A stretch of 64,000 bases of DNA from Spirochaetota bacterium (GCA_036846345.1 DAIUCD010000005.1:110155-174154); one strand, 5' to 3'. Shown: positions 41,212 through 64,000, counted from the first letter of the stretch. A program made the numbers and translations. Notes: generated from the sequence alone by a model not told the origin.

Positions 41212-41214
41212 TAC

Positions 41215-42507
41215 ATGAATACTGCAAGATCTAGGGAGCTTTACAGCAGAGCGCTGGAGCTGATGCCGGGAGGGGTCAATTCTCCCGTAAGGGCCTTTCG
41301 TTCCGTGGGGGGTGATCCTCTGTTCATCCGGAGCGGAAAAGGCCCAAACTTCAGGGATGTCGATGGGAATGAGTATGTAGATTACTGTATGTCCTGGGGG
41401 CCCATGATTCTGGGGCATGCCGATGAAGATGTCGTCGCCTCCCTTCTGGAGGGGGTGGGGATGGGTACGAGCTTCGGGACACCCAATGAATACGAAGTAG
41501 AACTGGCGGAGATGGTTCTCCGCCGTTTTCCCTCCATGGATAAGATACGTTTCGTCAATTCCGGCACCGAGGCCACCATGAGTGCCATACGGCTCGCCCG
41601 GGGGTTTACAGGACGCGAGAAGATCATCAAATTCGACGGGTGCTATCATGGCCACGCGGATCACCTCCTCGTCGCGGGAGGATCCGGCCTGGCAACCTTC
41701 GGAACGCCGGACTCAGCAGGGGTCAACAGGGATAATGTGAAGGATACCATCGTTATCCCCTTTAACAATCTTCCTCTGCTGGAGTCGCTGCTCCAGAGGG
41801 AGGGCGGCACTATCGCCGCGGTCATCATGGAGCCGGTCCCCTGTAATTACGGTCTCATCATCCCGAACAAAGAGTTCCTCACAGGCGTACGTGAACTCTG
41901 TACACGCCATGATATACTGCTCATCTGGGACGAGGTCATCACCGGATTGCGTTTGGCTCCGGGAGGGGCACAGGAGTATTACGGCATCAGGGCGGATATC
42001 ACGACGCTGGGTAAAATCATAGGCGGGGGCCTTCCGGTAGGGGCCTATGGCGCCTCAAAGGAAATCATGGCCCTGGTAGCCCCTGACGGTCCCGTCTATC
42101 AGGCCGGAACGCTTTCCGGCAACCCCCTTGCCATGCGGGCGGGGATAGCCACGCTCAAGAAGATGGAGAATCTGGACGGATACATAAAACTGAGCGAGCG
42201 GGGGGATATCTTCGAGTCAGGGGTCCGTCCCGTTGCCCGGGAATACCAGGGGCGGCTGCTCTTTACACGACTGGAATCCATTTTCTGTATTTATTTTACC
42301 GGCAGGGACCGCATCGGCGATGTTGATCAGGTGCGGGAATCCGACATGAAGCTGTTCGCACTTTTTCATCGGGCCATGCTGGAAAAGGGGATCTATCTCT
42401 CGCCCTCCGGTTACGAGGTCGGATTTCTCTCCACGGCCCATGGGACGGAGGAGATCAGCAAGACGGTGGATGCCCTTCGCCTGTCCCTTAAGGAGGTGCT
42501 GGGCTGA
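41215..42507 (+). CDS. hemL: glutamate-1-semialdehyde 2,1-aminomutase
   Basis: Class III aminotransferase with PLP-lysine region TLGKIIGGGLPVGAYG; adjacent to hemB. Confidence 0.95.
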   Translation: MNTARSRELYSRALELMPGGVNSPVRAFRSVGGDPLFIRSGKGPNFRDVDGNEYVDYCMSWGPMILGHADEDVVASLLEGVGMGTSFGTPNEYEVELAEMVLRRFPSMDKIRFVNSGTEATMSAIRLARGFTGREKIIKFDGCYHGHADHLLVAGGSGLATFGTPDSAGVNRDNVKDTIVIPFNNLPLLESLLQREGGTIAAVIMEPVPCNYGLIIPNKEFLTGVRELCTRHDILLIWDEVITGLRLAPGGAQEYYGIRADITTLGKIIGGGLPVGAYGASKEIMALVAPDGPVYQAGTLSGNPLAMRAGIATLKKMENLDGYIKLSERGDIFESGVRPVAREYQGRLLFTRLESIFCIYFTGRDRIGDVDQVRESDMKLFALFHRAMLEKGIYLSPSGYEVGFLSTAHGTEEISKTVDALRLSLKEVLG

Positions 42508-43617
42508 TCAGCGGGAGAGCCTTTTCTCCTTTGGAATGGATATACGGAAGAGGAGGCGGTTTTTATTGTCCATGTTCGTCTGAATGATCCCGCCGTGAAG
42601 TATGATCAGCCTCTGGGCGATAGCCAGATCGAAGTCGACATTCTGCGTGGAGAGGGAATAAAAGGGATTGAAGATGAAGTGGACATCCTCTTCCTTCAGC
42701 TTATTGGTTGTCAGTTCAATTTTCAGGGATATCTCATAGGGCGCGAAACGGAGGCTGATCACCACCGGCCTGTCCGGGAGGGAGAGCAGCAGTGAGTGCC
42801 GCAGCAGGTTCTTGATGGCGGTGCTGAACTTGGAGCGGTCAATATAGATCGGGTATTCCTCCAATTCGATAGGGGGGGTTTCCAGGGTGATTTTTTCCTT
42901 TTGTGAGATCTTTTTGGCATAACGAAAAATCTCCTGAAACACGGTTACCGTATTTTCCCTCTGAAATTTGATATCAGAGATATCCGAATACCTTTCCACC
43001 TGGTTGACGATATGATTCAGCCGTTCGGCGTCTTCTTTGATGTAGGTGATGTATTTTTTCAGTTCCTCCAGATCCCTTCCGTCTTTCAGAGCGCATTTTC
43101 TTAGAAGGAGATTGGCATATCCACCGATGGAAACGATCGGATTTCGGACTTCATGAGCGACGGAATCGGCTATTTGTCGCAGAGTCTCCATCTGATCAAT
43201 ATAACGGTTCTTTATCTGATAGATAAGCCTTTTCTCCTTCAGGTGGAGCTTCCAGATTTCCGTAATGTCTTTGATGATGATCGAAAAGTGAGGCTTCCCT
43301 CCATTGCCCGGCGCGGGCGGGAGGAGGGTTATCATCAGCTTGAGTTCTCTCTCCTTCTTTTGTATAAAGGTCATCTCGTGATGGCTTACAAAGCGGTTAT
43401 CCTTTATGCTCTGGGAGAGAAATCTGTAAAAGCCGGGATTGGAGCTTTCCAGGAGGGAAGACAGTGATCCGTGGTGGTTTTTCCGCTGATTGAGGCCGAA
43501 AGCCCTTTTGGCATAACGGTTGATGAAGATCACCCTTTCTCTGGTGTCGACGAGAAGGACACCTTCATCCAAGTGGTTGAGTAGATTATGAGGATGTGGG
43601 GCATTCCAGTTTATCAT
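42508..43617 (-). CDS. PAS-domain sensor histidine kinase (cytoplasmic)
   Basis: H-box SVAHEVRNP, HATPase region; convergent with hemL; the two stop codons abut as TGATCA. Confidence 0.8.
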   Translation of the reverse strand: MINWNAPHPHNLLNHLDEGVLLVDTRERVIFINRYAKRAFGLNQRKNHHGSLSSLLESSNPGFYRFLSQSIKDNRFVSHHEMTFIQKKERELKLMITLLPPAPGNGGKPHFSIIIKDITEIWKLHLKEKRLIYQIKNRYIDQMETLRQIADSVAHEVRNPIVSIGGYANLLLRKCALKDGRDLEELKKYITYIKEDAERLNHIVNQVERYSDISDIKFQRENTVTVFQEIFRYAKKISQKEKITLETPPIELEEYPIYIDRSKFSTAIKNLLRHSLLLSLPDRPVVISLRFAPYEISLKIELTTNKLKEEDVHFIFNPFYSLSTQNVDFDLAIAQRLIILHGGIIQTNMDNKNRLLFRISIPKEKRLSR

Positions 43618-43894
43618 AAGGGTTTTATACGGACTATCTTGTATATTGAAACATTATAAGCCCGGGGACTAAAATAATCAAAGAAAAAATGAGGGGCAAT
43701 CAGGGGAAAAATAAGTATCTGAGGTGGCCTTTCCAGCCGCTGAGGGTCTCCGGAATATTTCTCCAGTATAATGCAAGCATATGATCAAAAAATCGTTGAT
43801 GATAATTGGCAATCCATCATAGTATGGTCCTTTCTTCGAAATTTCCTATCAGCAAATAATCTATCATCCAGCAGCATTGGAACAGGAGTGTGTC

Positions 43895-45082
43895 ATGATA
43901 CAGGATAATGATGCGGTAATCGTCAGTTCGATACGGACAGCCCTGGGTGCCTATAATGGGACCCTGTCTTCCATGGATGCTACGGATTTGGGTGCCATTG
44001 TGATCCGCGAGGCGGTTAAGAAGGCCGGGATTCAAAAGAGCGATGTCCAGGAGATTATTATGGGGATGGTTCTTCCCTGCGGTTATGGTCAGAACCCGGC
44101 GAGACAAGCCGCCATAAGGGCGGAAATGCCGATGGAGCCGGGGGGGCTTACCGTTAACAAGGTATGCGGATCGGGTCTCATGTCTGTCGTACTGGCATCG
44201 GAGCTCATCAAGTCTGGGTATGCCGAGGTTGTTGTCGCGGGGGGCATGGAAAACATGAGCAAAGCGCCCTACTATCTCCCCAATGCCCGCTGGGGGGCTA
44301 GAATGGGGGACAGTCCGTTAATGGATCATATGGTGCACGACGGCCTCTGGGATATCAACAACAACTATCATATGGGGACGACTAACGACATCATCAGTCG
44401 GGAATGGGAGATCAGCCGGGAGGATCAGGATAAATATGCTCTTGGCTCCTACGACAAAGCTCTCAAATCCATCCGGGAAGGGGTCTTTAAGGACGAGATT
44501 GTGCCGGTGGTCATGAAATCAAAAAAGGGGGATGTCGTTTTCGACACCGATGAATGCCCTCGGGCGACGAGTCTCGAATTATTATCTAAAATGAAACCTG
44601 CCTTTACCAAGGATGGCTTTGCCACTGCCGGGAATGCTTCGGTCATAAGCGATGGTGCTGCAGCGGCCGTTGTTATGAGTTATAAAAAGGCGAAAGCTCT
44701 GGGGCTTAAACCTCTGGTGAAAATCGTTGCCTCCGGCTCGGCAGGGGTCGATTTGCCTCATGTTTTGATGGCACCCATAAAATCCATTCCTCATGTATGC
44801 AGAAGGGCGGGGATCGAAATCAAGGATATAGGCCTTCAGGAGATCAATGAGGCTTTTTCCGGTTCTACTCTGGCAGTCATGAAGGAATTAAAGCTGGACC
44901 GGGAGATCGTCAATGTCAACGGAGGGTCGGTGGCGCTGGGGCATCCCATAGGAGCTTCCGGGGCCCGGGTCCTGGCAACCCTGATACATGAGATGAAACG
45001 CAGGAAGACAAAGCTGGGCGCAGCCTCTCTATGCCTTGGTGGGGCTGAGGCCGTTACTATGATTGTTGAGAATATAGAATGA
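43895..45082 (+). CDS. acetyl-CoA C-acetyltransferase (thiolase II)
   Basis: [12 protein letters not shown] active-site Cys region, C-terminal GGAEAVTM; ATG after an AGGAG RBS. Confidence 0.9.
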
Positions 45083-45512
45083 GCTCTATCCCCGCTTCTT
45101 CTATCATCTCCTCTGCGAGGCTGTCTTTGTAAGGGTTTTTGAAGACGAAGCGATCTATGCCGCTGTTAATGAGCATCTTGGTGCAGATGGAGCAGGGCTG
45201 GTGAGTGATGTAAATCCAGGCTCCCTTGATGGAAACCCCGTGAAGGGCGGCCTGGATGATCGCGTTCTGCTCGGCATGCAGCCCGCGGCAGAGTTCGTGC
45301 CGTTCCCCTGATGGGATGTTGTATTTCGATCTCAGACAGCTTTCCGTCGTACAGTGAGATATTCTTGAGGGAACCCCGTTGTATCCCGTCGTAAGGATTC
45401 GCTTATCTTTAACCACTACAGCCCCTACCTTCCTTCGGACGCAGGTTGCCCGGGTGGACACGTCTTCGGCAATGGTCATGAAGTAATCATCCCAACTGGG
45501 TCGTTGACTCAT
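45057..45512 (-). CDS. dCMP deaminase (cytidine/deoxycytidylate deaminase family)
   Basis: HAEQNAI…PCSICTKML zinc-binding CDA motifs. Confidence 0.85.
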
Positions 45513-46144
45513 AAATCAACCTCATATTTGAAATTAAGATATGTTGATACCGGTTCCCCGGAATTGAGTGTAATCACTGCCTGAAGGGGGATATGCCTCA
45601 CATCAAGCGGTATAAGGGATTTCTGCTGGGGAATGATGCATTGAGGGTTTTCCAGAGCAAAGGTGCGGATAACTTCGCGATCCAGGGATTTCATAAAGGA
45701 TTTGGCCTCCTGTGTTTTCAAAAGCAGTATACCCGGCTTTTCACCCACTTCGAATGTAGTGATGGTCTGATCCATGTATTTTATCTTTACGGTAAGTATC
45801 GAAAGCCCCTTAAAGGGCAGGGTGATGTCTTTTAGGCTGTTGGAATTGATGGTGAGGGAGAAAATATACTGATCCGATTTTTTCCTGCGGGAGACGGTAT
45901 AACGGAAACTGGCATTCCTGTAGCTCAGGCTCGTTGTAAAATAGGGACTATCGGAATGCTCTGATTTGAAAAGATAGATGATAGTCAGGACAAGAAGGAG
46001 ATTTATGAAAAGAAGGAACCCGGGAACTTTCCTCTTATTCGATGGCCGTTTCTCTTTCTTATCAGAATAGATTCTGTCAAGAAGCTCTTTTGTCAGTGGA
46101 CTCTTTGGTTCCATATTCACCTGGTTTAATGAAAACCGTAACAA
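45509..46144 (-). CDS. single-pass membrane hypothetical protein
   Basis: TM helix at residues ~40-60; start overlaps the dCMP deaminase stop; AT-rich. Confidence 0.45.
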
Positions 46145-46373
46145 TTAACAATTTTACCAGAAATAAGATTATTGTAAACGACTTTCCCTGTCAATCAACT
46201 CTAAGGACTCTGCGGAAAAACTTATAGTAACGAAAATTATAATCAGAAAATTTACTTGATCTTTTGATCAGAATGTGTTTGACTTGTAAAGTCGCAAATC
46301 ATGTGTTTGATTGCCGGTATCATTGATCTCCTCGATTATTGGAATCGGAATACATTATACTTGATCAATATGA

Positions 46374-48102
<1,729 letters not shown>

Positions 48103-48178
48103 GTGGGGCCGAAAACTCCCACTGTTTGCGGAAACATGATAACCGGATGGGTCTTCCTTATCCCTATATACAATCAAA

Positions 48179-48739
48179 ATGAAAATTGAATATCAGAAAA
48201 CCACTCAAGAGGACGAGAATGTCATCAAAAGGCAGTTAAATGCTGCCCATGTACGCTCTATGGGGATTGTTGAAAAATGCCGTCATGGATATCCGCGAAT
48301 AATCCTTCTCTCACCCATGGCAAGTCTCAATAATGAGGAGATTAATTACGAGGCCATCAGCAACGTCTTTTGGCTGACTTGTCCCTATCTGAATGACAGG
48401 ATACACCGTATAGAATCTGACGGATTATCGGTCAGAATATCCGATTTCGTTCATAATGACCTGATGTTTCGTGGTATAATGAACAGGGCACATGCGCATT
48501 TTTATTATCTACGAAAAAATCTGTTCCAGGATTATTTTAAAACTTCGTTGCCAGAAAGCAAAATGAGGGTTTTCAACACGGGAATCGGGGGAAGCCGCGA
48601 CGTTAATTCCCTGAAATGTCTGCATATCCAGTATTGCCATTATAGAGTCTTCACGGAAAACATAACGGGCAGAATTATATCGGAGTTGCTAAACAACGTC
48701 ATTGATTGTAAAGGGGTGATTTGTAAACATGCAGGTTAA
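48179..48739 (+). CDS. DUF501-like protein
   Basis: Weak motif resemblance plus the conserved eno-ftsB-DUF501 synteny recalled from actinobacteria. Confidence 0.45.
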   Translation: MKIEYQKTTQEDENVIKRQLNAAHVRSMGIVEKCRHGYPRIILLSPMASLNNEEINYEAISNVFWLTCPYLNDRIHRIESDGLSVRISDFVHNDLMFRGIMNRAHAHFYYLRKNLFQDYFKTSLPESKMRVFNTGIGGSRDVNSLKCLHIQYCHYRVFTENITGRIISELLNNVIDCKGVICKHAG

Positions 48740-49370
48740 GTCGGCTCAGATTATCTCTATCAAAAAACTGAAAAAGGACGGTTCTTTCGGCACCGATATT
48801 ATTCAGCGGATTATTGAGGCATTACTGAATAATCAGAATGTGCTTATGCCCATCGATAACGTTTACGGCATAGCAGGTTTAAACCTTAATGATTTGCAGG
48901 AAAGATTCTCCTTCGATAATACGACGAATCATGATCATATGGAGTGCCTCATATCTTCCTTCCGCATGCTGGATGACATTGCGGATTATAGTAAATCGGA
49001 TTATGATTTTCTAAACAGGATATGGCCGGGCGAAGTGAGCGTTGTCTTTAACTGTAAAAATGGCCTTAAGAAGAAGAAACCATTAAAGGTCCGGTATCCC
49101 AAAACGCGATTTTTCCAGTATGTTGTAGAGGAAATTAATAAACCCCTATACTATTTACCTGCGCTGAAGGATTTTAATAAACCGGTTTATAAAAAAAGTG
49201 AACTTATTAAATATTACGGGGACAGAGCCGATTGTATGGTGCTAATCGATGAGCTGTGCAAAAAACACCCTTTGCCCACATTGATTGATATTAAAGACGG
49301 AAAGCTGATGATCCTCCATGAAGGAAAAATCTCCTCGGACGAAATCAAATCGCTCTATTTTTTAGGTTGA
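48729..49370 (+). CDS. YrdC/Sua5-domain protein (L-threonylcarbamoyladenylate synthase TsaC-like)
   Basis: LMPIDNVYGIAG, IWPGEVSVVF, LKVRYP motifs, collinear with my recollection of E. coli YrdC. Confidence 0.6.
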   Translation: MQVKSAQIISIKKLKKDGSFGTDIIQRIIEALLNNQNVLMPIDNVYGIAGLNLNDLQERFSFDNTTNHDHMECLISSFRMLDDIADYSKSDYDFLNRIWPGEVSVVFNCKNGLKKKKPLKVRYPKTRFFQYVVEEINKPLYYLPALKDFNKPVYKKSELIKYYGDRADCMVLIDELCKKHPLPTLIDIKDGKLMILHEGKISSDEIKSLYFLG

Positions 49371-50192
49371 ATACTCCTCAGCCCCCATAGTGAAGAATAT
49401 ATGCTTAATTCCGAACAACTTCACATAACCTTTTGCAGATATATTCAAATGGAATGGTGATATTTTCATACTGACCCAATCCCTTCTTGCCATGATTTTC
49501 TTGCCCATTTTATCAGCAGCATAGCAATATGCACCATTGTCAGTTGTTACTAATAGAAAATAATTGTTTTTTTGATGTAGTGATCCGGAGCTTGGAAAAA
49601 AATCAATGACCGAATAGAATATCCCCCCATGCTCCACCGAAACGATCTGATCTCTTTCGTGATACTGTGTCTTGGCAGATCTGGCTTCAATAATTTCAAT
49701 TTCAGCAAATGGGGTAATGAACCAGGAATTTTTCCTTTGAAAGGTGATCCATTTGAAGGGAAGGATCGTCTCAGCATCCTTCAGATTATTTCGTGATCTC
49801 GATGGATTCTTATGCAGACATTGTTTTTTTTCTTGATTCTGCCTAAAACCCTCCTCCCGTAATTCCGTCACCTTCTGATGCAGATAGTAAATGACATTGA
49901 AATTTATCCCTTCGTGCGTGTACCGTTTATAATATTCCTTCAAGGTTGCCCTGAGTTTATATAAGTATTCTATTCCATTAAGATTATTGAAGCTGGAATA
50001 GAGGGAAATGAGGACGTCGATATGATCGAGAAGGGCGTCATAGAGGCCTTGGAAGTCCCGGTATTCATTTTCCAGTTTAAAGAGAAACTGTTCAATCGTA
50101 TGAGTTAGCTCTTCAATTGAATGGAAACTGTTTTGCCAGAAATCCGCGACGAGATGAGTTTTATCCAGAAACTGTTTCATGTGTGATATCAT
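49362..50192 (-). CDS. hypothetical protein with C-terminal CheW-like domain
   Basis: C-terminal ~130 aa follows the CheW hydrophobic pattern (WFITPFAEIEIIEA … YFLLVTTDNGAYCYAADKMGKKI). Confidence 0.4.
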   Translation of the reverse strand: MISHMKQFLDKTHLVADFWQNSFHSIEELTHTIEQFLFKLENEYRDFQGLYDALLDHIDVLISLYSSFNNLNGIEYLYKLRATLKEYYKRYTHEGINFNVIYYLHQKVTELREEGFRQNQEKKQCLHKNPSRSRNNLKDAETILPFKWITFQRKNSWFITPFAEIEIIEARSAKTQYHERDQIVSVEHGGIFYSVIDFFPSSGSLHQKNNYFLLVTTDNGAYCYAADKMGKKIMARRDWVSMKISPFHLNISAKGYVKLFGIKHIFFTMGAEEYST

Positions 50193-50556
50193 TCAATGAA
50201 TTGGGCATGAATAAATACTCTAATAATAATGCAATAATGGATATCCGGATAAGTCAATACTTTCTTTACTTGATAATAAAATCAACATTTATGGTTGGAT
50301 GGATTCATCTCCTGCCATAGGGACGGGACATGCATCTAAAGAGTTGGGATTGCTCATAGTTTCTGATGTATCTCTTGAAAAGTTTAATGTGAATTAACGA
50401 TATAAAAAAACTGTAATTTATGCATTCTATGTAGTATACTAAATGTAAGTTAGTTCCTGATAAAGTCTGTATCATGGGATTGCAGCCATTAGTAAAATTA
50501 TAATAAATATATACATTTTCTTTGCGGGATATAATTACTTTAACAGGAGATGACCC

Positions 50557-54084: not shown

Positions 54085-54144
54085 AAACTGGTTTCGATTT
54101 GGATAAAAAACGAGAATTTGCACTGAGTGTCATTGGATAAGCTG

Positions 54145-55164: not shown

Positions 55165-55436
55165 AATTCTCTAATAAAAAATAATTGCAAAAACCCGCGA
55201 ATGCCGTGTAGGTAATAATTTTTGAACCTGTTTACACAGGTGGGTTTCCTCATGTTGAATTCAACCTTCTCTCGTGAAAGAGTATGGTTTTCTTGAACAG
55301 ATTTAGAATCCCTTTTCATATAATATTGGTACAAAAATGTTGATACCTATCTCGAGCATCGCAGGCTATACTCAAATAAACAACAGAGAAGACATAATTT
55401 CAACTATTTTTTACAAGTTAAACGGGGATGTGAGTC

Positions 55437-56579
55437 TTGAATCATGATTATTTTACAATAGGGCCCCGGAAAGACATTAGGGATATCAAAATAGTTCTCT
55501 ATAATGAAAAGGAGATCAGTAATTCACTGGTAAAAAGGTTTTTGACCTGTGAGGGGTATTCATTCAGATGCATTTCCTATCAAGATGAATCGGATTTGGG
55601 AACAAAGATCCAGTCTTTCATCCATGAGGGAGCAGAATCAAAAGAGGTATTGATATTAAAGGACAACCGGGGACGCTTTGTACAGAAATGTCCCGGTTCC
55701 CCCGGGGTCATTTGCTGTAATTACTGGGTTGTTAATACCTGTTTCAATTGTCTATATGATTGTTCCTATTGTTATCTAAACACATACCTAAATTCCTTCG
55801 GAATTGTCCAGTTCTCCAATCTGGAAGTGCTTTACAGGGATCTGTGTGAATTCTCGAAAAAAAACGAAAACAGAGTTTGCCGCATCGGGACCGGGGAATA
55901 TACGGACTCGCTCATGATGGATCAGATTACCGGTATCGCTTCCGAGCTCATCAGTATTACATCAAAAAACAGGAATATCTTTCTTGAATTAAAAACAAAA
56001 TCCCATAATATAAATCATTTGCTGAACATCGGTGATAAAGGGAATACTGTCCTTGCTTGGAGCCTGAACACTCAGCGTAATATTGATAAACACGAGTCAG
56101 GAACGTCTTCCCTGGCAGAAAGACTGGCTTCGGCCAAGGAGGCATCAAAAAGTGGTTATCATACCGCTTTTCACTTCGATCCGATTATTATTTATGAGGG
56201 ATGGCAGGATGACTATCGAAAGACAATCAATGATCTGTTCAATGCCGTCCCTGCCGGGAATATATGCTGGATTTCTCTCGGCGGATTCAGATATACCCTG
56301 GCTTTTAAGGAATATATGAAAGAATATGGAAAAGACAGGGAAATCTTTGTGGAAGAATTTCTTCCGGGAATAGATGGTAAATACCGGTATTTCAAAAAGA
56401 ATAGGCTTGAAATTTATACCCATATAATACAATGCATAAGAGATCATTCCAGAGACGTATATTTATATTTCTGCATGGAAAGTGCTGATATCTGGTTGTC
56501 TGCATTAGGTAAAAGGTTTTCGGAATCCGAGGATCTTGAAAATGATATGATCAAACATCTGACCCAAAGTTATTTATAA
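55437..56579 (+). CDS. radical SAM protein of the spore-photoproduct-lyase (SplB-like) family
   Basis: CLYDCSYC (CxxxCxxC) radical-SAM cluster motif in an SplB-like context; TTG start per the ORF track. Confidence 0.65.
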   Translation: MNHDYFTIGPRKDIRDIKIVLYNEKEISNSLVKRFLTCEGYSFRCISYQDESDLGTKIQSFIHEGAESKEVLILKDNRGRFVQKCPGSPGVICCNYWVVNTCFNCLYDCSYCYLNTYLNSFGIVQFSNLEVLYRDLCEFSKKNENRVCRIGTGEYTDSLMMDQITGIASELISITSKNRNIFLELKTKSHNINHLLNIGDKGNTVLAWSLNTQRNIDKHESGTSSLAERLASAKEASKSGYHTAFHFDPIIIYEGWQDDYRKTINDLFNAVPAGNICWISLGGFRYTLAFKEYMKEYGKDREIFVEEFLPGIDGKYRYFKKNRLEIYTHIIQCIRDHSRDVYLYFCMESADIWLSALGKRFSESEDLENDMIKHLTQSYL

Positions 56580-56632
56580 TATTAAAATTATTCCCAATAG
56601 TAATTCTACGATACTGATTATGAGGTAAAACA

Positions 56633-57751
56633 TTGGAAGAACGAGATTATAGAGAAAGGAAAAGGGATCTGGAAGAACTTATCGGCAAAATTGACGATCT
56701 CTATCAATCATTGAATCTGGATTCATTAAGAGCCAAAATCATGCTATTGGAGCAGGAGACCCTCAAAGATGATTTCTGGACCAATAAAGAGCAGGCCGCA
56801 AAGATTAATTCTGAAATCAGTCAAATGAAAAAAAGGATTGATCCTCTCGGTAAACTATATGCCGAGGTCCAGGAAGCGATTGAGCTGATGGAATTGGCTA
56901 TGAAGGAAGATGACGAGGGACTGCTGAATGATATTAGCACTCAGATCGATGGTTACATGAAAACCTTCGATATGCTGGAAACTCTCGAATTGCTATCCGG
57001 TGAAGATGATGTTCGTAGTGCTTTCCTGACCGTACACCCAGGAGCCGGCGGCACGGAGTCCCAGGACTGGGCCAGTATGTTATTCCGGATGTATTTACGA
57101 TGGGCTGAAAAAAATGAGTATACCATCAGTGTAATTGATTATATGCCGGGTGAAGAAGCGGGCCTCAAAACGGCTACTGCATTAATTAACGGTGATTTTG
57201 CGTTCGGATTGCTTAAGTCCGAAAGGGGGATACATCGGCTGGTGAGGATTTCTCCTTTTGATGCCAATAAAAGACGCCATACTTCATTTGCAGCTGTTGA
57301 GATAATCCCGGAGGTCCCGGATGATGTGGATATTGAGATTAACGAATCGGATCTACGTATAGATACCTACCGTGCTTCAGGCGCGGGCGGCCAGCATGTT
57401 AACAAGACCGACTCAGCGGTTCGAATAACACACATACCATCGGGCATTATCGTGCAATGCCAGAATGAAAGATCGCAGCATAAAAACAAGGCTTTTGCGC
57501 TCAAGGTATTGCAATCGAAACTTTATCAATTGAAACGCAAGGAGATGGATGAGAAAAAGCTGGAAAAGATGGGGGAAAAGAAAGATATATCCTGGGGCAA
57601 TCAGATTAGATCCTATGTCTTTCAACCATATACCCTTGTCAAAGATCATAGGACTGGGGAAGAAACAGGTTCCATAGATTATGTATTGGACGGTGAGATT
57701 GACCGTTTTATCTATACCTATCTCAAAACATTAAAGGGCCAGCAGTTATAG
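56633..57751 (+). CDS. prfB: peptide chain release factor 2
   Basis: SPF and GGQ motifs (SGAGGQHVNKTDSAVRITH); TTG start after a GAGGT RBS; contiguous ORF with no programmed +1 frameshift. Confidence 0.9.
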   Translation: MEERDYRERKRDLEELIGKIDDLYQSLNLDSLRAKIMLLEQETLKDDFWTNKEQAAKINSEISQMKKRIDPLGKLYAEVQEAIELMELAMKEDDEGLLNDISTQIDGYMKTFDMLETLELLSGEDDVRSAFLTVHPGAGGTESQDWASMLFRMYLRWAEKNEYTISVIDYMPGEEAGLKTATALINGDFAFGLLKSERGIHRLVRISPFDANKRRHTSFAAVEIIPEVPDDVDIEINESDLRIDTYRASGAGGQHVNKTDSAVRITHIPSGIIVQCQNERSQHKNKAFALKVLQSKLYQLKRKEMDEKKLEKMGEKKDISWGNQIRSYVFQPYTLVKDHRTGEETGSIDYVLDGEIDRFIYTYLKTLKGQQL

Positions 57752-57849
57752 AGCTAGTTATTTTATTTCCAATTAATGAGTTTTATTCTTGAAAATTATC
57801 TCCCTTCATAATATTAAAAACCAAATAATATATAGTTAAAAATTATATC

Positions 57850-58710
57850 ATGAAAGTTGGTATTGATAAAATTCGAAATATAATGAATAAATACCCCAAT
57901 GAATTCTATTGCAGGTATTACTATGATATGATGGTCAAAGGGAGGAAATTCCACTCAGAGAACCCGGTTACTCTTGATGATCTGGATTATCTCCATAAAC
58001 AGGGATTTCTAGAGATCGACATCATCTATACTGTAACGGTTTATGAATACCTCTCCCATGAATACCCCATCGAATTCAGGAAACCATACAAAATGGCTGA
58101 ATTTATGGATATTGATAAATACCTTGAAGCCCTCAATCGTGTAAATGCTCAATCCAAGCGTAAACGTTGCATCTACATAATCGGAGATGTCTATACACAG
58201 GACAGTAAATCAGGGAACAGGCAGACTGTTGTGGGCCACAATGAAATGCTGGATTATAAAAAATGGAACGAGATAAAAAGGGATTTATCCAAGGATCAGA
58301 AATTTTTGTATAGAAATTCCGAGAACGGGATCATTGTTTTTATCAACATGATGCCCGATGCGGAAACGAGCTATATGGAAAGGTTCAGAAAGAATACGGA
58401 TTTGATTACCTCCATGGTGTCACGAAAGAAAAATATCAACATTGAGATCGCACCGGATTTTATATCCACTGAAGACGTTATTTCCGTAACTGATCCGGAA
58501 AAATTGCTGGATCAGTACATCGTCAATAATGCACGGCTGATTATAATTGGAGAAAACATATCTGAATCCTATAAAAAGGCTTTACTTCAGGTTAAGCAAT
58601 ATGATAAATTTGTCAGGATGATGATTGTACCCTTGATCGACATGACCAATCTGGAACATTTTCTGATGCAGGTGAAATTATTCTATAACTCCAATCGCTG
58701 GACCGAATAA
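57850..58710 (+). CDS. hypothetical protein (unknown family)
   Basis: 286-aa AT-rich ORF with a strongly AT-rich upstream region; no motif recognised. Confidence 0.5.
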   Translation: MKVGIDKIRNIMNKYPNEFYCRYYYDMMVKGRKFHSENPVTLDDLDYLHKQGFLEIDIIYTVTVYEYLSHEYPIEFRKPYKMAEFMDIDKYLEALNRVNAQSKRKRCIYIIGDVYTQDSKSGNRQTVVGHNEMLDYKKWNEIKRDLSKDQKFLYRNSENGIIVFINMMPDAETSYMERFRKNTDLITSMVSRKKNINIEIAPDFISTEDVISVTDPEKLLDQYIVNNARLIIIGENISESYKKALLQVKQYDKFVRMMIVPLIDMTNLEHFLMQVKLFYNSNRWTE

Positions 58711-58723
58711 GAGGTAGATTCCT

Positions 58724-59647
58724 TTGAAGAAGAAAACCCCGAAAAAATCCCTTTTCAAATATTTTGAACCCATTGATATGACTGATTTTATCAATGACGA
58801 GGGGAAAACCGGCAGCATAGAGGATAGCTTCGGATATTTTGCCTTTACGCCTAATAAGGACAATCTTTTTCTCAATAGGTTTTCCAAGGATGATCTGATG
58901 ACCATCATTAATAAGGTGGGGATGCTGGATCATCTGAACAAACGGGGGTTTGATAACATCATACTGGATATTGAAAAGGACGAGACACTGATCCATTATC
59001 TTAAGATTTATTATGGTGAGAAAAAGCCCAATAACATTCTTGTGGATCTCCGTCTTTCTGAATCGAGGTTTTTACCGGATTCAAAATACTTTCCCGAGGA
59101 TATTGAGGCTGTTACCTACGACATGATTGTCATCGAATGGCTGGCCTCTCAAAATCCTCATACAGATTTTTCAAACAACCGTCCCCAGCTGCCAGGTCAG
59201 AAAAAACCAGGGCTGGGTATTTTGAATTTTATGATGGAGATGATGTATATTGTCGGGCGAGAAGTGATCAAAGACGGCTTCATGGATGTTCCCGACCATA
59301 TGCACGGGGCTATAATGTACTCTAAAAAATTCAAGTTCTTTAACCCTTCCCATGAAGCCATTCTGCAGGCAATAGTAAGGGATCTTTCCAATTATCCGCT
59401 TATTGATATATCCTGGGGAATGCTGACCAATACGATTTATGATGCTGAAACCGGCAATCCGCAGGAATACGATCCGTCCGAACAGATATTTCCACTCTCC
59501 AGGCGCATTAGAAAGTATTTTAACTCGAAGATGTACAAAGAAAGATTGAGATATGTATATAAGAAAAAAAGGTACAAGTTCGATTATAACCGAATGCTCG
59601 AACTGAAGTCGGAAATGTTAAAGAATAAGAGTGTTGTCGATTTTTAG
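58724..59647 (+). CDS. hypothetical protein, possibly GNAT-like fold
   Basis: 13-nt gap from the upstream gene (operon); QLPGQKKPGLG loosely resembles the GNAT Q/R-x-x-G-x-G/A acyl-CoA motif. Confidence 0.45.
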   Translation: MKKKTPKKSLFKYFEPIDMTDFINDEGKTGSIEDSFGYFAFTPNKDNLFLNRFSKDDLMTIINKVGMLDHLNKRGFDNIILDIEKDETLIHYLKIYYGEKKPNNILVDLRLSESRFLPDSKYFPEDIEAVTYDMIVIEWLASQNPHTDFSNNRPQLPGQKKPGLGILNFMMEMMYIVGREVIKDGFMDVPDHMHGAIMYSKKFKFFNPSHEAILQAIVRDLSNYPLIDISWGMLTNTIYDAETGNPQEYDPSEQIFPLSRRIRKYFNSKMYKERLRYVYKKKRYKFDYNRMLELKSEMLKNKSVVDF

Positions 59648-60090
59648 GAATTTTGGTCCCACTTCAGTTTGTTGAGACGAGAAAGGGAGTTGATGTCCCT
59701 GTTCATCCCCTCAAGACGGCGCTCTATCATCTCAATCAACTCCAGCCGGCTCTTTGAGAGCGAGTCCATGCTGCTGAGTATTCTAGTTTCTGCGTCATGC
59801 ATTTCCTTTATTTCATGAGTTGGGGATAGGCGGTCATAGGAAAACTGGTCCATGCCGGCGATAGCGGCAATCTGGTGTTTTATTTGCTGTATATCAAAGT
59901 CCAGTAATTCTATCTGTTCCATGCAATCCTGATCTTTCTGCAGTAAATCGAGGAGTTGCTGTGAGTTATCGGTGGGTATTAAGTATCTCTTTTCGGTTTC
60001 TGATTGTTTGATGATATTGATAAGCTCCATCTTCCTGTTTATAAGGCACTTGGCCTCCGAAAGCAGGGAGCTGATATCATCCCTCAACAC
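59644..60090 (-). CDS. coiled-coil protein, FliT-like candidate (downstream partner of fliS)
   Basis: 148 aa, predicted all-helical; position and size fit fliT after fliS; no sequence motif. Confidence 0.35.
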   Translation of the reverse strand: MLRDDISSLLSEAKCLINRKMELINIIKQSETEKRYLIPTDNSQQLLDLLQKDQDCMEQIELLDFDIQQIKHQIAAIAGMDQFSYDRLSPTHEIKEMHDAETRILSSMDSLSKSRLELIEMIERRLEGMNRDINSLSRLNKLKWDQNS

Positions 60091-60511
60091 TAAAGCTGCC
60101 TTTGGAATCGATATTCTGTCCGTCTGATTTGACCTCTTTTGCGGATATCTTATTCCAAGCCTCCCTCAAGTCCTTTAAATATGACACAACCTCCTGTATG
60201 ATTTCGGAGCTCTTCTGTATGTTGGCCTCGAGAAGCCTCTTTTTAAAATACATATAGAGATTAAACAAATTGCGTGAGAATTCCCCCCCGTCATCCATAT
60301 TAAGGGACATGAGAAGTTCGGTTATGATGTCCTGAGCTTTTAAAATATTACTGTTTACTAAATCGTAGGTCTTGGGATTCATATTCTCAATGGCAATATT
60401 CAGGAACTTGATAGCGCCATCGTAAAGCATTACGATAAGTTTACCCTGGTTTGCAGTATTAATCTCGGTCTGTTTGTATTTATCGTAGGGATTTTTCTGA
60501 GGTAAGGCCAT
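60077..60511 (-). CDS. fliS: flagellar export chaperone FliS
   Basis: LIVMLYDGAIKFL…GGEFSRNLFNLYMYFKKRLLEAN…EVVSYLKDLREAWNKI, collinear with E. coli FliS as I recall it. Confidence 0.75.
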   Translation of the reverse strand: MALPQKNPYDKYKQTEINTANQGKLIVMLYDGAIKFLNIAIENMNPKTYDLVNSNILKAQDIITELLMSLNMDDGGEFSRNLFNLYMYFKKRLLEANIQKSSEIIQEVVSYLKDLREAWNKISAKEVKSDGQNIDSKGSFSVEG

Positions 60512-60675
60512 TTAAGTCCTCCCGATTATTATATCGAAATGATTTCACAGCGCATAATAATAATATTATCGACAAAACAATTAAATGACTTGATACTATA
60601 ACCGATGACCAAAACAGTTGAAAACCGCTAACCTCGATAGAAATACCTGGAGCATGGTGAGAATTGTTGAATCTT

Positions 60676-61554
60676 TTAAAAAATATGTTTAATTTTGCTG
60701 TAAATTTCCTGATACTTTTCCTGTGTTCTGAAAATGATTTCATCCGGGAGGGGAGGGGGAGGTGAATTTTTGTCCCAGCTAGTCGTGTTCAGATAGTCTC
60801 TTATAAACTGCTTATCATAGCTGACAGGAGAGGTTCCGATCTGATAACTGGCCTCGTCCCAAAAACGTGAGCTATCAGGAGTTAGAACCTCATCAATTAA
60901 TACTATTTCATTGCGAATAAAACCGAATTCAAATTTGGTATCCGCGAGGATGATACCCGCCTTTTTCAGCTTCTCTCTCCCGAAGTCGTAGATCTGAAGT
61001 GTTAATTCTCCCAGTCGGTCGGCTACATCCGAATCCAGTTTTTTTCTCATGACATCAATGGAGACATTGATATCATGACCCCTTTTAGCCTTAGTGGCTG
61101 GGGTAAACAGGGGATGGGGAAGCTTCTGAGCCATCTGTAGGCCGTCCTCCATCTTGATTCCGCAAACTGATCCAGTTTTTATGTAATCTTCCCAGCCGCT
61201 TCCAATCAAATAACCCCTTGCAACACATTCAAAATCAATTCTTTCTGCTTTTTTTACAATTACTGATCGGTCTTTCAATTCCGGGATATCTGAAAAAGGT
61301 TTTGGGAAATTTGCTATATTTGACTCAACAATATGATTTTTTAAAAACTTAATGTTCGAAAACCATATATTAGAAATTTTATTTAAAAGTAACCCTTTCC
61401 CGGGAATTCCATTGGGAAAGACATGGTCAAATGCTGATATTCTGTCTGTAGATACTATCAGATAATGGTCTGGGTCAACCAAATAGACATCACGCACCTT
61501 GCCGCTGAATAGTTTTTTTGCGCCCTGGATTTTGAGATTCGTGATTGCTTCCAT
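60676..61554 (-). CDS. purC: phosphoribosylaminoimidazole-succinocarboxamide synthase (SAICAR synthetase)
   Basis: GKVRDVY N-terminal motif; 292-aa long-form PurC. Confidence 0.9.
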   Translation of the reverse strand: MEAITNLKIQGAKKLFSGKVRDVYLVDPDHYLIVSTDRISAFDHVFPNGIPGKGLLLNKISNIWFSNIKFLKNHIVESNIANFPKPFSDIPELKDRSVIVKKAERIDFECVARGYLIGSGWEDYIKTGSVCGIKMEDGLQMAQKLPHPLFTPATKAKRGHDINVSIDVMRKKLDSDVADRLGELTLQIYDFGREKLKKAGIILADTKFEFGFIRNEIVLIDEVLTPDSSRFWDEASYQIGTSPVSYDKQFIRDYLNTTSWDKNSPPPPLPDEIIFRTQEKYQEIYSKIKHIF

Positions 61555-61590
61555 CGTAGACCTCTAATTTCTATTACGGTGGGTGATCAA

Positions 61591-63051
61591 TTATTGGGAT
61601 AATTTCTTTAAGAGTAAATCATTGACAATCTGGGGATTTGCCTTGCCCTTGGACTCTTTCATGATCTGGCCGACTAAAAATTTGAGGGCCTTATCCTTAC
61701 CATTCCTGTAATCGGATACTGATTCAGGATTATCTTGTATGATCTGTTCCACGATTTTTTCAATTGCAGTAACGTCTGTTACCTGTTTTAGACCCTTGGT
61801 TTCTACTATCGTCTCGGCTGCATTACCGCTGGTGATCATCTCTTCAAAAACAACCTTTGCAATTTTTCCGCTTATGGTATTATTGTCTATGAGTTTTATC
61901 AGTCCTGCAAGCATCTCAGGCGTGACAGGAAAGATTGAAATCTTTTCAGAATCATCAATGCGCCCGAGAAGCTCACTCATAATCCAGTTTGAAATACGTT
62001 TGGGATTAGCTCCAACGGCTACAGCCGCTTCATAGTATTCCGCCAGAGGTTTGGTTGATGTCAGCACATCTGCATCATACTCCGGTATTTCGTAATCCCG
62101 TACGATCCTGGCTTTCCTCTCATCAGGCAATTCAGGGAGCATGTTCCTGATATGATTAATATAAATATCATCAATGATTATGGGAGGTAGATCCGGTTCG
62201 GGAAAGTATCTGTAATCATGCGCTTCCTCCTTGGAACGCATGCTGAAGGTCTCACAACGCTGGGAATCCCATAAACGTGTTTCCTGTACAATGACTTCAC
62301 CCTCATCAAGCATGCGGGCCTGTCTTTCGATCTCGTAATCCAGGGATGCTTTTACAGCCTTGAAGGAATTGAGATTTTTGATTTCAACCTTTTCCCCGAA
62401 TTTCTCCTGGCCGAATTCCCTTAGAGATATGTTTACATCACACCGGAGACTCCCTTCCTCCATGTTGCAGTCGGATACTTCGAGGTATTTCATTATAATT
62501 TTCAATTTTTGCAGGTAGTTATAAGCTTCCTCGGAACTTCTAATGTCAGGTTCCGAAACGATCTCGATGAGAGGAACTCCTGTTCGGTTGAAATTGACCA
62601 TAGAGATCTTGTGAGATGGGTTCTCTGAATGGATGGATTTACCGGCATCCTCCTCGAGATGAAGCCTGGTAATACCAATTCTTTTAAGGCCTTGGGATGT
62701 GTTGACGACGATGTGTCCCTCATGGCAAATCGGTTTATCATACTGGGAAATCTGATAAGCCTTCGGGAGATCAGGATAGAAATAATTCTTCCTGTCGAAT
62801 TTGCTGTAATGGGATATATGACAGTTTAGGGACAATCCGGCCAATATGGCTTTAGTTAATACCTCACTATTGAAAACGGGAAGTACGCCTGGAAGGCCGA
62901 GGCACACAGGGCATGTCTGTGAATTGGGATCGTTTCCGAATTTTGTGGAACATCCGCAAAAAATCTTAGTCTCAGTGTTGAGCTGAATATGCACTTCCAA
63001 GCCTATCACAGGTTCATACTTCATTTTATCCTCATGGATCGGATCGGTCAA
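61591..63051 (-). CDS. gatB: Asp-tRNA(Asn)/Glu-tRNA(Gln) amidotransferase subunit B
   Basis: Full-length GatB with VIGLEVHIQL N-terminus and C-terminal YqeY-like domain. Confidence 0.95.
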   Translation of the reverse strand: MTDPIHEDKMKYEPVIGLEVHIQLNTETKIFCGCSTKFGNDPNSQTCPVCLGLPGVLPVFNSEVLTKAILAGLSLNCHISHYSKFDRKNYFYPDLPKAYQISQYDKPICHEGHIVVNTSQGLKRIGITRLHLEEDAGKSIHSENPSHKISMVNFNRTGVPLIEIVSEPDIRSSEEAYNYLQKLKIIMKYLEVSDCNMEEGSLRCDVNISLREFGQEKFGEKVEIKNLNSFKAVKASLDYEIERQARMLDEGEVIVQETRLWDSQRCETFSMRSKEEAHDYRYFPEPDLPPIIIDDIYINHIRNMLPELPDERKARIVRDYEIPEYDADVLTSTKPLAEYYEAAVAVGANPKRISNWIMSELLGRIDDSEKISIFPVTPEMLAGLIKLIDNNTISGKIAKVVFEEMITSGNAAETIVETKGLKQVTDVTAIEKIVEQIIQDNPESVSDYRNGKDKALKFLVGQIMKESKGKANPQIVNDLLLKKLSQ

Positions 63052-63145
63052 TTGATTGCCAGCGTTTGAAAAATTGCATCCGAAGTCGGAATTGAAAGTA
63101 AATATTTGTTGAAATATTGAGTTTATCTATTTCACTGTTTATAAT

Positions 63146-63685
63146 TTGTCAACTAGAAAGGTTTCAATTGAAAAAAAACTATCTTTGGTCCCAATGAGAA
63201 TATTTAAAGTGCCGATAATTGCTCTCCTCCTGTTCATCTCAGGTTTTACAGCAGGCAGTTTGCTGAAAAAACAGTTTTTTATTGAGTTTTTAGGTATGGG
63301 GAGTAATTACCTGTATTTGATATACCGTCCGGTTCATCAATTTGTAAGAATTCGTTATGAATTGTATAGTAATAATAAACTGGAGCGACTTAAAGCCTAT
63401 TATGCCCTGTATGATTATAATTACATCGATGTGGATTTCCTGGCTGAGAGATACAGGCTGGAAGATTCTCATTTGAATAAAAGGACTATAGTCTGGATTC
63501 TGGGCAATGCACCTGATCGGGATAAAGTGAAAAGATTCATCAATAAAGAGTTTGAGCCGGCTGAGAGAGATGTACAATTGGAAATGCTTGGTGTGCTGAA
63601 CAGGATGGGACAAGGGGTTTTGAGGGATTTTATTCAGGAGAGGCATATCCCGAAGGCGCTGTACAGGATAATCCTGGGTAATTAA
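63146..63685 (+). CDS. hypothetical membrane-anchored protein
   Basis: N-terminal TM (VPIIALLLFISGFTAGSLL); helical-repeat-like C-terminus. Confidence 0.4.
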   Translation: MSTRKVSIEKKLSLVPMRIFKVPIIALLLFISGFTAGSLLKKQFFIEFLGMGSNYLYLIYRPVHQFVRIRYELYSNNKLERLKAYYALYDYNYIDVDFLAERYRLEDSHLNKRTIVWILGNAPDRDKVKRFINKEFEPAERDVQLEMLGVLNRMGQGVLRDFIQERHIPKALYRIILGN

Positions 63686-63764
63686 TGATGATAACGGTAA
63701 GTAGTTTGACTAATTTAAGGATACCGTATCATTTTGTTGAAATATTTATTAACGGGTTACTATT

Positions 63765-64000
63765 ATGAAAGAGTACATTGAAAATTTATGCATAAAGAGT
63801 AGGCTGGCATCACGATATATTGCAAATCTCACTACCAATCAGCGCAATGATATATTGATGGCTATTGCTGATAAACTAAGAGAAAGAAGCAGTTTTATTA
63901 TCGAAGAAAACCGGAAGGATTTGGATATCGCGGATACTTCAGGGGTTAACAGTGCTTTTCGGGACAGGCTGTTGCTTAATGTCGACCGTATAGAAGGTTT
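63765..64000 (+). CDS. proA: gamma-glutamyl phosphate reductase, N-terminal fragment (continues past window end)
   Basis: N-terminus MKEYIENLCIKSRLASRYIANLTTNQRNDILMAIADKLRE…NRKDLDIA collinear with ProA. Confidence 0.7.
   Translation, partial: MKEYIENLCIKSRLASRYIANLTTNQRNDILMAIADKLRERSSFIIEENRKDLDIADTSGVNSAFRDRLLLNVDRIEG

Follow-up and report, generated by a model that had tools for sequence, protein, structure and literature searches.

The question raised by this locus is whether an abrupt fall in GC content, across DNA that carries core genes on both sides, belongs to the organism or to the assembly. The window analysed here is a stretch of 64,000 nucleotides within a 232-kb metagenome contig assigned to the Spirochaetota. 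An earlier note on this DNA had offered three explanations: a chimeric join, a genuinely mosaic composition and expression-linked codon bias. Of these the mosaic composition is favoured by our analysis, as the step is a true border between two long-standing compositional domains on one uncultured spirochaete chromosome.

Size and position of the compositional step

The GC content was 53.1% over positions 1-45,470 and 41.5% over 45,471-64,000, a fall of 12 points. GC at third codon positions (GC3) went from 0.664 left of the change point to 0.472 right of it, and intergenic GC fell by 14 points, from 0.472 to 0.328. The direction, approximate location and significance of the drop noticed earlier were borne out, but not its size, which had been put at 15-20 points. 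Similarly, the first 42 kb or so had been described as 55-70% GC, whereas 2-kb windows gave 0.48-0.60 across the first 42 kb and 0.38-0.47 past 46 kb. The 60-nt lines sampled for those figures lay in the high and low tails of the 60-nt distributions, which had a mean GC of 0.533 on the left (5-95%: 0.38-0.67) and 0.414 on the right (5-95%: 0.28-0.55).

The features of the two domains and of the zone between them were as follows.

1-45,486, no strand: GC-richer domain (GC 0.53, GC3 0.66, intergenic GC 0.47), with genes for an MCP, enoyl-CoA hydratase, acrylyl-CoA reductase, a TPP enzyme, plsC, rlmD, mpl, psd, a 1754-aa Ser/Thr kinase, thyX, hemB, hemL, a histidine kinase, thiolase and dCMP deaminase
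40,240-42,507, plus strand: hemB-hemL (GC3 0.66-0.67), what is left of the clade's hem cluster
42,505-42,510, no strand: TGATCA, where the stop codons of hemL and the convergent histidine-kinase gene abut
42,508-45,082, both strands: histidine kinase (minus; GC3 0.62) and thiolase (plus; GC3 0.59)
45,057-45,512, minus strand: dCMP deaminase (ComEB-like; GC3 0.625), the last gene of left-type composition
45,470-45,512, no strand: change-point interval (maximum likelihood for GC at 45,470-45,510 and for GC3 at 45,486), holding an ATGA overlap
45,487-64,000, no strand: AT-richer domain (GC 0.415, GC3 0.47, intergenic GC 0.33), with eno, a ftsB/DivIC-like gene, DUF501, a Sua5-like gene, PFOR, 6S RNA, a SPL-like radical SAM gene, prfB, fliS, purC and gatB, and beyond the window, to 68.1 kb, a proA-like gene, nadD, LytR_C and rsfS
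45,509-46,144, minus strand: ORFan, a membrane-anchored protein (GC3 0.50) whose gene lies upstream of the deaminase gene and overlaps it
46,145-46,385, no strand: divergent AT-rich intergenic region upstream of eno, the end of synteny with the closest relative, L007
46,386-59,647, plus strand: eno to a 307-aa hypothetical gene, in an order common to the Leptospiraceae-labelled genome L007
55,437-63,051, no strand: SPL-prfB-hyp-hyp-hyp-fliS-purC-gatB, in an order common to GCA_016929135.1 (H) and ERZ28669879 ctg35388 (Lo)

The earlier gene calls for eno, PFOR, prfB, purC, gatB, hemL, the histidine kinase and thiolase were confirmed. Accessory and housekeeping genes are intermixed in the GC-richer domain.

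The third-codon-position change point had a 2-lnL support interval of 44,425-45,507 and a lnL gain of 300. When 1-kb blocks were shuffled the largest gain was 94, as compared to an observed gain of 359. Per-gene GC3 was 0.667 ± 0.053 for 34 genes on the left and 0.471 ± 0.045 for 17 genes on the right (Mann-Whitney p = 1e-8). A step (logit -0.65) fitted far better than a linear gradient, and the top-fitting model was a step with a gentle downward slope; the GC3 contrast of about 16-19 points was reached within 1-3 kb. By composition against its flank (GC3 0.66 vs 0.47), the region is atypical, as a genomic island would be; every site class and every gene shift jointly per region, as in regionally structured genomes or domains of GC-biased gene conversion (gBGC). 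In total 73 kb of the genome was examined, in which the high-GC state reached at least 4.7 kb left of the window start and the low-GC state reached at least the 68.1-kb position, past the window end. As one public contig (ERZ724080 NODE_1288) runs to about 78 kb, the AT-richer domain is probably at least 32 kb long, with its composition read to 68.1 kb only.

The change point falls on a pair of intact, co-oriented genes. In the ATGA at 45,509-45,512 the stop codon of the ORFan overlaps the start codon of the dCMP deaminase, and this overlap suggests that the two genes are translationally coupled. No homologue of the ORFan was found among 5.8 billion proteins. The intergenic region next to the ORFan (46,145-46,385) is the most natural physical border between the blocks, because synteny with L007 stops there. 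The histidine kinase and thiolase segment lies at the bottom of the left-type GC3 range and is flanked by two synteny breakpoints. One of these is the TGATCA, since in relatives hemA comes after hemL. This abutment, noticed earlier as a candidate join, is present, but it is not the compositional boundary, which falls near 45,486. The compositional border coincides with lineage-specific synteny breakpoints.

Contiguity of the sequence across the step

In the earlier note a chimeric join within about 42.5-46 kb was raised as one possibility. However, eight independently assembled contigs span 45.5 kb colinearly and without gaps at 99.9-100% identity: five from metaSPAdes (ERZ724081, -82, -83, -84 and -87) and three from Logan (SRR3330207, -08 and -11), the latter running unbroken through this point. 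Two assemblers and no fewer than five distinct read sets lie behind them. The organism's DNA is continuous across the step.

Some observations did fit a join. The single-sample contig ERZ724080 NODE_1288 terminates at 45,471, precisely at the change point, and tetranucleotide (TETRA) similarity between the blocks was not above that between related genomes. Coverage taken from contig headers in three low-coverage samples was 4.85-4.90 vs 6.17, 2.90 vs 3.91 and 3.56 vs 3.13 (left vs right), so that the left was about 20-25% lower in two of the three; the comparison, which had been proposed as a check, nevertheless showed similar values on the two sides. Against a join stand, besides the eight contigs, the intact ATGA-coupled gene pair at the change point and the equal taxonomic level of the matches on both sides, Spirochaetota at about 70% identity, as found with another check that had been suggested. 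The unaligned ends of two contigs (L090 and L097) were Illumina adapter and not alternative junctions. Moreover, two relatives also have hemBL close to the prfB cluster; by our own rough estimate, the chance of a random join restoring this arrangement is about 1-2%. We therefore consider an assembly chimera of two different organisms highly improbable. The locus resembles chimeric contigs of metagenome-assembled genomes (MAGs) in having a GC step in a long contig and in the ending of one single-sample contig at that step. It differs from them in that the junction is repeated in eight independent contigs, within an overlapping gene pair, and in that coverage is similar and taxonomy agrees across the sides. 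GC steps this large in MAG contigs are routinely taken as contamination or chimerism; here the step is real, and decontamination by GC would mistakenly break up a true genome.

Relatives, gene order and composition on the two sides

The best non-self matches were at 70% identity for hemL on the left and 70% for prfB on the right, and the identity distribution was flat at 63-70%, with nearly all matches that carry an organism name belonging to the Spirochaetota. For hemL, prfB and eno, the best matches were almost all Spirochaetota where named, at 68-70% (eno 83%). No relative closer than about 70% was found for either block among the 5.8 billion proteins. The closest relatives with sequenced genomes are Spirochaetota MAGs, with a protein identity of about 70%, and the one nearest on the right side is labelled Leptospiraceae (L007; eno 83%, PFOR 73%, prfB 69%). 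When the identity of the window organism to relatives was divided by that between relatives, two left genes gave identity ratios of 0.90-1.07 and ten right genes gave 1.02-1.55. These ranges overlap, and no phylogenetic incongruence between the blocks was detectable in these 12 genes.

The AT-rich block from eno to gatB and rsfS consists of core genes with their order kept in L007, H and Lo, and is a vertically conserved syntenic housekeeping cluster. For this reason it is not a classical island, in line with the earlier note, and the scans agree: no tRNA and no repeats were found, and no integrase or transposase in NCBIfam or Pfam scans. The GC-rich block is rearranged, accessory-rich and poor in synteny, yet it retains the old neighbours hemB-hemL. 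Judged by accessory content, the AT-rich block does not look like an island and the GC-rich block partly does. In three relatives hemL and prfB are both on a single contig, and in two of them the hem (hemBL) and prfB clusters lie about 26 kb apart on the same contig. The hemBL-prfB neighbourhood is ancestral.

The same neighbourhood was compared for composition. The two relatives had a GC3 of 0.78 vs 0.71 and 0.295 vs 0.258 in the hem and prfB regions, so the hem region was GC-richer in both, and the prfB region was lower by 5 points in GC1, 2-4 in GC2 and 4-8 in GC3. L007, the closest relative, showed no contrast across the equivalent point. As the GC3 contrast between equivalent regions of relatives is only 0-8 points, most of the step is specific to the lineage of the window organism.

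These comparisons bear on codon bias linked to expression or function, according to which the right block would be AT-rich owing to the kind of genes it carries. Gene content does give part of the contrast, as the prfB region is lower at all three codon positions in both relatives. However, all 17 right-block genes are shifted, hypothetical genes included, the intergenic DNA falls by its 14 points, and codon positions 1 and 2 also shift in conserved orthologues in an orthologue-controlled comparison. In addition, eno and PFOR, which are likely highly expressed, have some of the highest GC contents in the AT-rich block, and the contrast is absent from the same orthologues in L007 and only about one third as large in the other relatives. 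Expression-linked bias, as raised earlier, was excluded because the shift extends to all genes, to the spacers and to the first two codon positions of conserved orthologues, and an explanation by the kind of genes is very unlikely.

Origin of the two domains

The genome signature was intermediate. A codon dialect (NCC, GAT/CAT/TAT, CAG, CTG), an excess of CC/GG and a deficit of AC/GT are common to both blocks. The Karlin delta* between left and right was 47, lower than against any of 72 other loci (minimum 62), yet roughly double the baseline of 19-29 that equal-sized segments gave within the genomes of relatives. The TETRA correlation between the blocks was 0.63, as compared to 0.79-0.88 within genomes, and the left block had a higher correlation, 0.70-0.73, with a GC-rich relative than it had with the right block; in oligonucleotide usage the right block was like an AT-rich relative. 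GC at codon positions 1 and 2 tracked GC3 in each block, near the GC12-GC3 line of the clade in the orthologue-controlled comparison, with no clear signature of amelioration. As positions 1 and 2 follow GC3 in this way, the domains are long standing.

We tentatively favour the explanation that both regions evolved in place under different substitution regimes. The flexible region, often recombining and rearranged, may have been pushed GC-rich, for example by gBGC, and the conserved core cluster, if poor in recombination, would drift AT-rich under the usual AT-biased mutation; the sharp step would then be the edge of the flexible region. In bacteria, GC3 is higher in genes that show signs of recombination (PMC4450053). 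The contiguity, the same-lineage matches, the shared codon and dinucleotide biases, the GC12-GC3 balance and the contrast in the same direction in both relatives are in favour of in-place evolution. On the opposing side, the sampled population was essentially clonal, and bacterial genomes usually show regional effects of mutation or gBGC as gradual changes of a few points, as compared to 19 here.

The doubled delta*, the low TETRA correlation, the better match of the left block to a GC-rich relative, the sharp step that far outfits a gradient and the absence of contrast in L007 count against in-place regimes. They are instead consistent with import or introgression, in which one block, or much of it, came from a related spirochaete lineage with another GC content and replaced the homologous neighbourhood, with partial amelioration or none at all. 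Compositionally different donors do exist, as GC3 spans 0.26-0.78 in the clade at only about 30-35% protein divergence with conserved gene order. In addition, the transition is abrupt and coincides with synteny breakpoints, and the delta* and TETRA values fall between the within-genome and between-genome ones. Import is nevertheless opposed by the best match of 70% for both blocks; neither has a closer relative, and therefore both donor and recipient would need to be unsampled. Neither hemL nor prfB has a second copy, and the lack of mobility genes, tRNA and repeats, the ancestral neighbourhood, the common codon dialect and the lack of detectable incongruence in identity ratios are also against it. 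We regard import as the second candidate, somewhat less likely than evolution in place.

Horizontally acquired genomic islands and their amelioration were reportedly described by Lawrence and Ochman in 1997. The window resembles such islands in its sharp compositional step on a scale of tens of kb, its border at a synteny breakpoint and the ORFan at the edge. It differs in that the AT-rich side holds single-copy housekeeping genes in an order kept in three relatives, with no tRNA, integrase, transposase or flanking repeat, in that both sides are equally related to known genomes, and in the balance of positions 1 and 2 with GC3.

Regional GC3 structuring is said to have been reported along bacterial chromosomes by Daubin and Perriere in 2003 and in Mycoplasma genitalium by Kerr, Peden and Sharp in 1997. 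The likeness lies in the joint shift of site classes and genes of a region whatever their function, and in the gentle slope atop the step. Known cases change gradually, across hundreds of kb, and their amplitude is smaller, whereas here about 16-19 GC3 points are passed within 1-3 kb. No origin or terminus was found in the window. GC3 differences between gene classes that are linked to gBGC usually seem smaller than the amplitude here. Within one genome, heterogeneity by gBGC does predict that recombining (flexible) genes are GC-richer and non-recombining ones AT-richer (Lassalle et al. 2015, PMC4450053).

It is unusual for adjacent blocks, both with housekeeping genes, to differ by about 19 GC3 points. 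It is conceivable, although on balance unlikely, that a free-living spirochaete keeps sharp-bordered, isochore-like domains in one chromosome, with a putative recombination-active GC-rich region beside an AT-drifting, recombination-poor core. If so, the contrast would reach protein composition. Members of the clade range from 28% to 60% GC with gene order kept, and the clade is a good natural system for studying what drives rapid GC change in bacteria, with mutation bias, biased gene conversion and large-scale exchange between relatives as candidate drivers.

Size and shape of the GC step

The sliding GC profile showed an overall drop of 12 points, from 0.531 (1-45,470; left block) to 0.415 (45,471-64,000; right block), and maximum likelihood placed the change point at 45,470-45,510. 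GC3 was 0.664 in the left and 0.472 in the right block, with a change point at 45,486 (2-lnL support interval 44,425-45,507; lnL gain 300), and the per-gene values were 0.667 ± 0.053 and 0.471 ± 0.045 (p = 1e-8). Intergenic GC was 0.472 on the left and 0.328 on the right, the drop being greater at neutral-like sites (GC3, intergenic) than in overall GC. An earlier note on this DNA had described a fall from 55-70% to 32-50%, or 15-20 points. The drop itself was borne out by the profile and the change point, but its size was overstated, as GC in 2-kb windows spanned 0.48-0.60 in the left block and 0.38-0.47 in the right block. The GC of 60-nt lines has a standard deviation of 0.08, and therefore the hand-picked lines behind the extreme values had fallen in the tails.

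A single dominant step was supported by shuffling, segmentation and model comparison. When 1-kb blocks were shuffled, the largest gain was 94 compared to 359 observed. The step model exceeded a linear gradient by 73 lnL units, and the best model was a step with a gentle downward slope. Recursive segmentation found just one further step, a weak one inside the GC-rich domain at ~26.6 kb (~26,620; GC3 0.687 before and 0.637 after; lnL gain 18). A ramp at 42-49 kb, seen in sliding GC3, was considered as extra segments and received no support from the segmentation. Public contigs showed that the GC-rich state runs at least 4.7 kb further left and the AT-rich state to at least 68.1 kb.

Gene content and contiguity across the border

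Genes were annotated with NCBIfam and Pfam. The left block encodes MCP, beta-oxidation-type enzymes, a TPP enzyme, plsC, rlmD, mpl, psd, thyX, hemB, hemL, a histidine kinase, thiolase and dCMP deaminase, and the right block eno, a DivIC/FtsB-like protein, DUF501, a Sua5-like protein, PFOR, an SPL-like radical SAM protein, prfB, fliS, purC and gatB. Housekeeping genes are therefore present on both sides. No tRNA, integrase or transposase was found in the window. Four features were recorded in more detail:

32149-37413, plus strand: multidomain signalling protein of 1754 aa, with N-terminal Ser/Thr kinase, NTPase/TPR-like, GAF and PP2C/SpoIIE-like parts read by eye from the translation
45509-46144, minus strand: ORFan, 201-211 aa; N-terminal membrane anchor; unmatched in Pfam and NCBIfam
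55188-55370, minus strand: 6S RNA (ssrS, RF00013), full-length model match, 97 bits (gathering score 46)
56633-57751, plus strand: prfB, one uninterrupted ORF matching RF2 model positions 2-353

The 6S RNA is flanked by a hypothetical gene (54145-55164) and the gene for the SPL-like radical SAM protein. A programmed +1 frameshift is common in bacterial prfB genes; the window copy appears, from its reading frame, to do without one, and the homologues called in relatives are 371-377 aa long. For the ORFan no homologue was found among 5.8 billion proteins, and a positional homologue was sought but not found in L007, a MAG labelled uncultured Leptospiraceae.

The change point falls at an ATGA overlap, in which the stop of the ORFan lies over the start of the dCMP deaminase gene (45057-45512), both on the minus strand. 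No repeats were found at the junction. The thiolase and dCMP deaminase ORFs are convergent, and their 3' ends overlap by 26 nt (45057-45082).

The earlier note had raised a chimeric join of two organisms at 42.5-46 kb. Exact-protein look-ups yielded contigs of this organism that had been assembled independently from a set of samples. Eight of them were colinear through the change point at 99.9-100% identity, five from metaSPAdes (ERZ724081, -82, -83, -84, -87) and three from Logan (SRR3330207, -08, -11), and the longest crossing contig (41,140-52,059) spanned the whole suspect interval. Logan contigs are non-branching paths built with small k (~31), and a join via sequence common to two genomes would have broken them. 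Contig-header coverage of left-only and right-only contigs was similar, though low, within each of three samples (4.85-4.90 vs 6.17, 2.90 vs 3.91 and 3.56 vs 3.13). The proteins tested from both sides were all on one 232,186-bp NCBI contig, from which the window presumably comes. In favour of a join, one contig ends right at the change point: ERZ724080 NODE_1288 (32,615 bp, 100% identical to the window) stops at 45,471, at most 15 nt from the GC3 change point. This end, at 6x coverage, may reflect chance or an accident of low coverage, an effect of GC on coverage, or a structural variant carried by that sample. With the eight crossing contigs, the intact ATGA overlap and the same lineage on both sides (see below), an assembly chimera is essentially excluded.

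The unaligned ends of two other public metaSPAdes contigs (L090, 1-43; L097, 3503-3532) had been considered as alternative junctions and were rejected as Illumina TruSeq adapter, so the deposited metaSPAdes assemblies carry untrimmed adapter. SNP comparison of the public contigs showed mismatches bunching at low-coverage contig ends and an essentially clonal population.

Relatives and gene order

The earlier note had proposed comparing the taxonomic best hits of each side, and these did not differ: both hemL and prfB hit Spirochaetota at ~70%. The best non-self matches of hemL among 5.8 billion proteins were at 68-70%, with organism names nearly all Spirochaetota. For prfB the best was at 70% in a flat 63-70% distribution with Spirochaetota names, the L007 copy being at 69%. 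The best match of eno was L007 (83%), followed by Spirochaetes MAGs. Homologues of hemL and prfB were found on one contig in three relatives, as matched by the lengths of the contigs (107,731, 181,436 and 103,955). In two of these, a GC-rich one (H, GCA_016929135.1) and an AT-rich one (Lo, ERZ28669879 ctg35388), both regions were compared and the hem and prfB clusters lie ~26 kb apart. From the equal hit levels and this linkage, both sides belong to one lineage and the neighbourhood is old. By a rough estimate, a random join or insertion would have a ~1-2% chance of recreating the hem-prfB neighbourhood. Identity ratios, with two left-block genes compared, showed no detectable phylogenetic incongruence between the blocks.

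In H and Lo the prfB cluster is ordered SPL-prfB-hyp-hyp-hyp-fliS-purC-gatB-hyp-(proA)-nadD-lytR-rsfS-eno, and the right block keeps this order. The window and L007 have in common a derived order, eno-ftsB-DUF501-Sua5-hyp-PFOR-SPL-prfB. The eno gene has been relocated: in two relatives (Lo, locus L103, 19627-20919; H, locus L104, 20491-21122) it stands last in the prfB-gatB cluster, after rsfS, and in the window (46386-47690) and L007 it instead heads the block running to prfB.

Two synteny breaks were specific to the window. At the first, relatives have hemA after hemL, whereas in the window hemL directly abuts a convergent histidine kinase gene (TGATCA, zero spacer), as pointed out in the earlier note. 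At the second, the gene order shared with L007 ends just upstream of eno. The kinase, thiolase, deaminase and ORFan lie in the 3.6 kb that separate the two breakpoints. The hem cluster of the window (40240-42510) is truncated to hemB-hemL alone, whereas relatives (L087 of H, L088 of Lo, and L105) have hemC and hemD/cobA upstream and hemA and alternative-haem-pathway-like radical SAM genes downstream. The compositional border lies at lineage-specific rearrangement breakpoints. It is genuine and separates two compositional domains of one spirochaete chromosome; the conserved syntenic core makes up the AT-rich one.

Origin of the compositional difference

In H, region-wide GC3 was 0.78 for the hem region and 0.71 for the prfB region (p = 1e-4). 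The corresponding values were 0.295 and 0.258 in Lo (p = 0.05), and 0.667 and 0.471 in the window. The prfB region of H and Lo was also lower in GC1 and GC2, by 5 and 2-4 points. L007 had no contrast over the equivalent point (GC3 0.576 vs 0.567). By this comparison roughly a third of the window contrast belongs to these genes or regions, and the remaining 12-14 GC3 points are lineage-specific, along with 3-4 points at codon positions 1 and 2. The bulk of the contrast is, as judged from these sequences, not ancestral.

The shift was not confined to silent sites, as right-block proteins had more K, N and I and less G, A, R and V. Expression-linked codon bias, which the earlier note had offered as an alternative, is likewise essentially excluded, since hypothetical genes and spacers shift too, and within the AT-rich block eno and PFOR are among the genes highest in GC.

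On an orthologue-controlled axis of GC at codon positions 1+2 (Lo = 0, H = 1), right-block proteins were at ~0.18, and hemB and hemL at ~0.72. In each block positions 1+2 deviated by no more than 0.01-0.02 from the GC12-GC3 line of the clade itself, and each therefore looks compositionally equilibrated. Either the difference is old or each block still mirrors the genome where it was equilibrated. Convergence of two origins, by the Lawrence-Ochman comparison of GC12 with GC3 against a GC-rich and an AT-rich relative, was first suggested and then dropped, because the deviations were only 0.01-0.02 and the absolute Muto-Osawa offsets are a baseline shared by the clade.

Both blocks preferred NCC, GAT/CAT/TAT, CAG and CTG, and had an excess of CC/GG and a deficit of AC/GT. 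Karlin's delta* between them was 47, whereas the values to 72 other loci were all at least 62. As a one-genome baseline, segments of equal size from a single contig were compared in H, Lo and L007 and gave delta* 19-29 and TETRA r 0.79-0.88, so the blocks (delta* 47, r 0.63) were about twice as different as expected. The TETRA correlation of the left block was higher with H than with the right block, and the left-right r of 0.63-0.68 (15-20 kb segments) overlapped the values between related genomes.

These intermediate distances, the sharp step and the clade's enormous GC range would suit homologous import of the neighbourhood from a related lineage of different GC. Such an import would need two unsampled lineages and would have left no mobility traces, and we regard it as plausible but somewhat less likely than the reading that follows. 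We tentatively favour, at somewhat less than even confidence, regional substitution regimes acting in situ in the two domains. The flexible, rearranged and presumably recombination-active left region would be driven GC-rich, and the recombination-poor core cluster would drift AT-rich in place. Regional regimes fit the reported association of recombination with GC3 in bacteria (PMC4450053), and also the codon preferences common to both blocks, the ancestral neighbourhood and the fact that both sides are equally related to known genomes.

The remark in the earlier note that this is not the usual horizontally acquired island was upheld: unlike a classical genomic island, the window has no mobility genes, the content of the AT-rich block is core and syntenic, and the taxonomic affinity of the best hits is the same on both sides. 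The step resembles islands and regional GC3 structuring in behaving as a compositional domain boundary, and we file it as intragenomic compositional heterogeneity, a kind of feature already known. Its amplitude and sharpness seem to go beyond those familiar from regional structuring and gBGC. It serves mainly as a verified caution against 'decontaminating' MAGs by GC.

The step also draws attention to a clade of spirochaetes whose GC evolves very fast. Between H and Lo the gene order was the same in both regions and identity was 47-76% over twelve protein pairs (65-76% for well-conserved ones). GC was 55-60% vs 33-37% and GC3 0.71-0.78 vs 0.26-0.30, which indicates very rapid change of GC in this clade.
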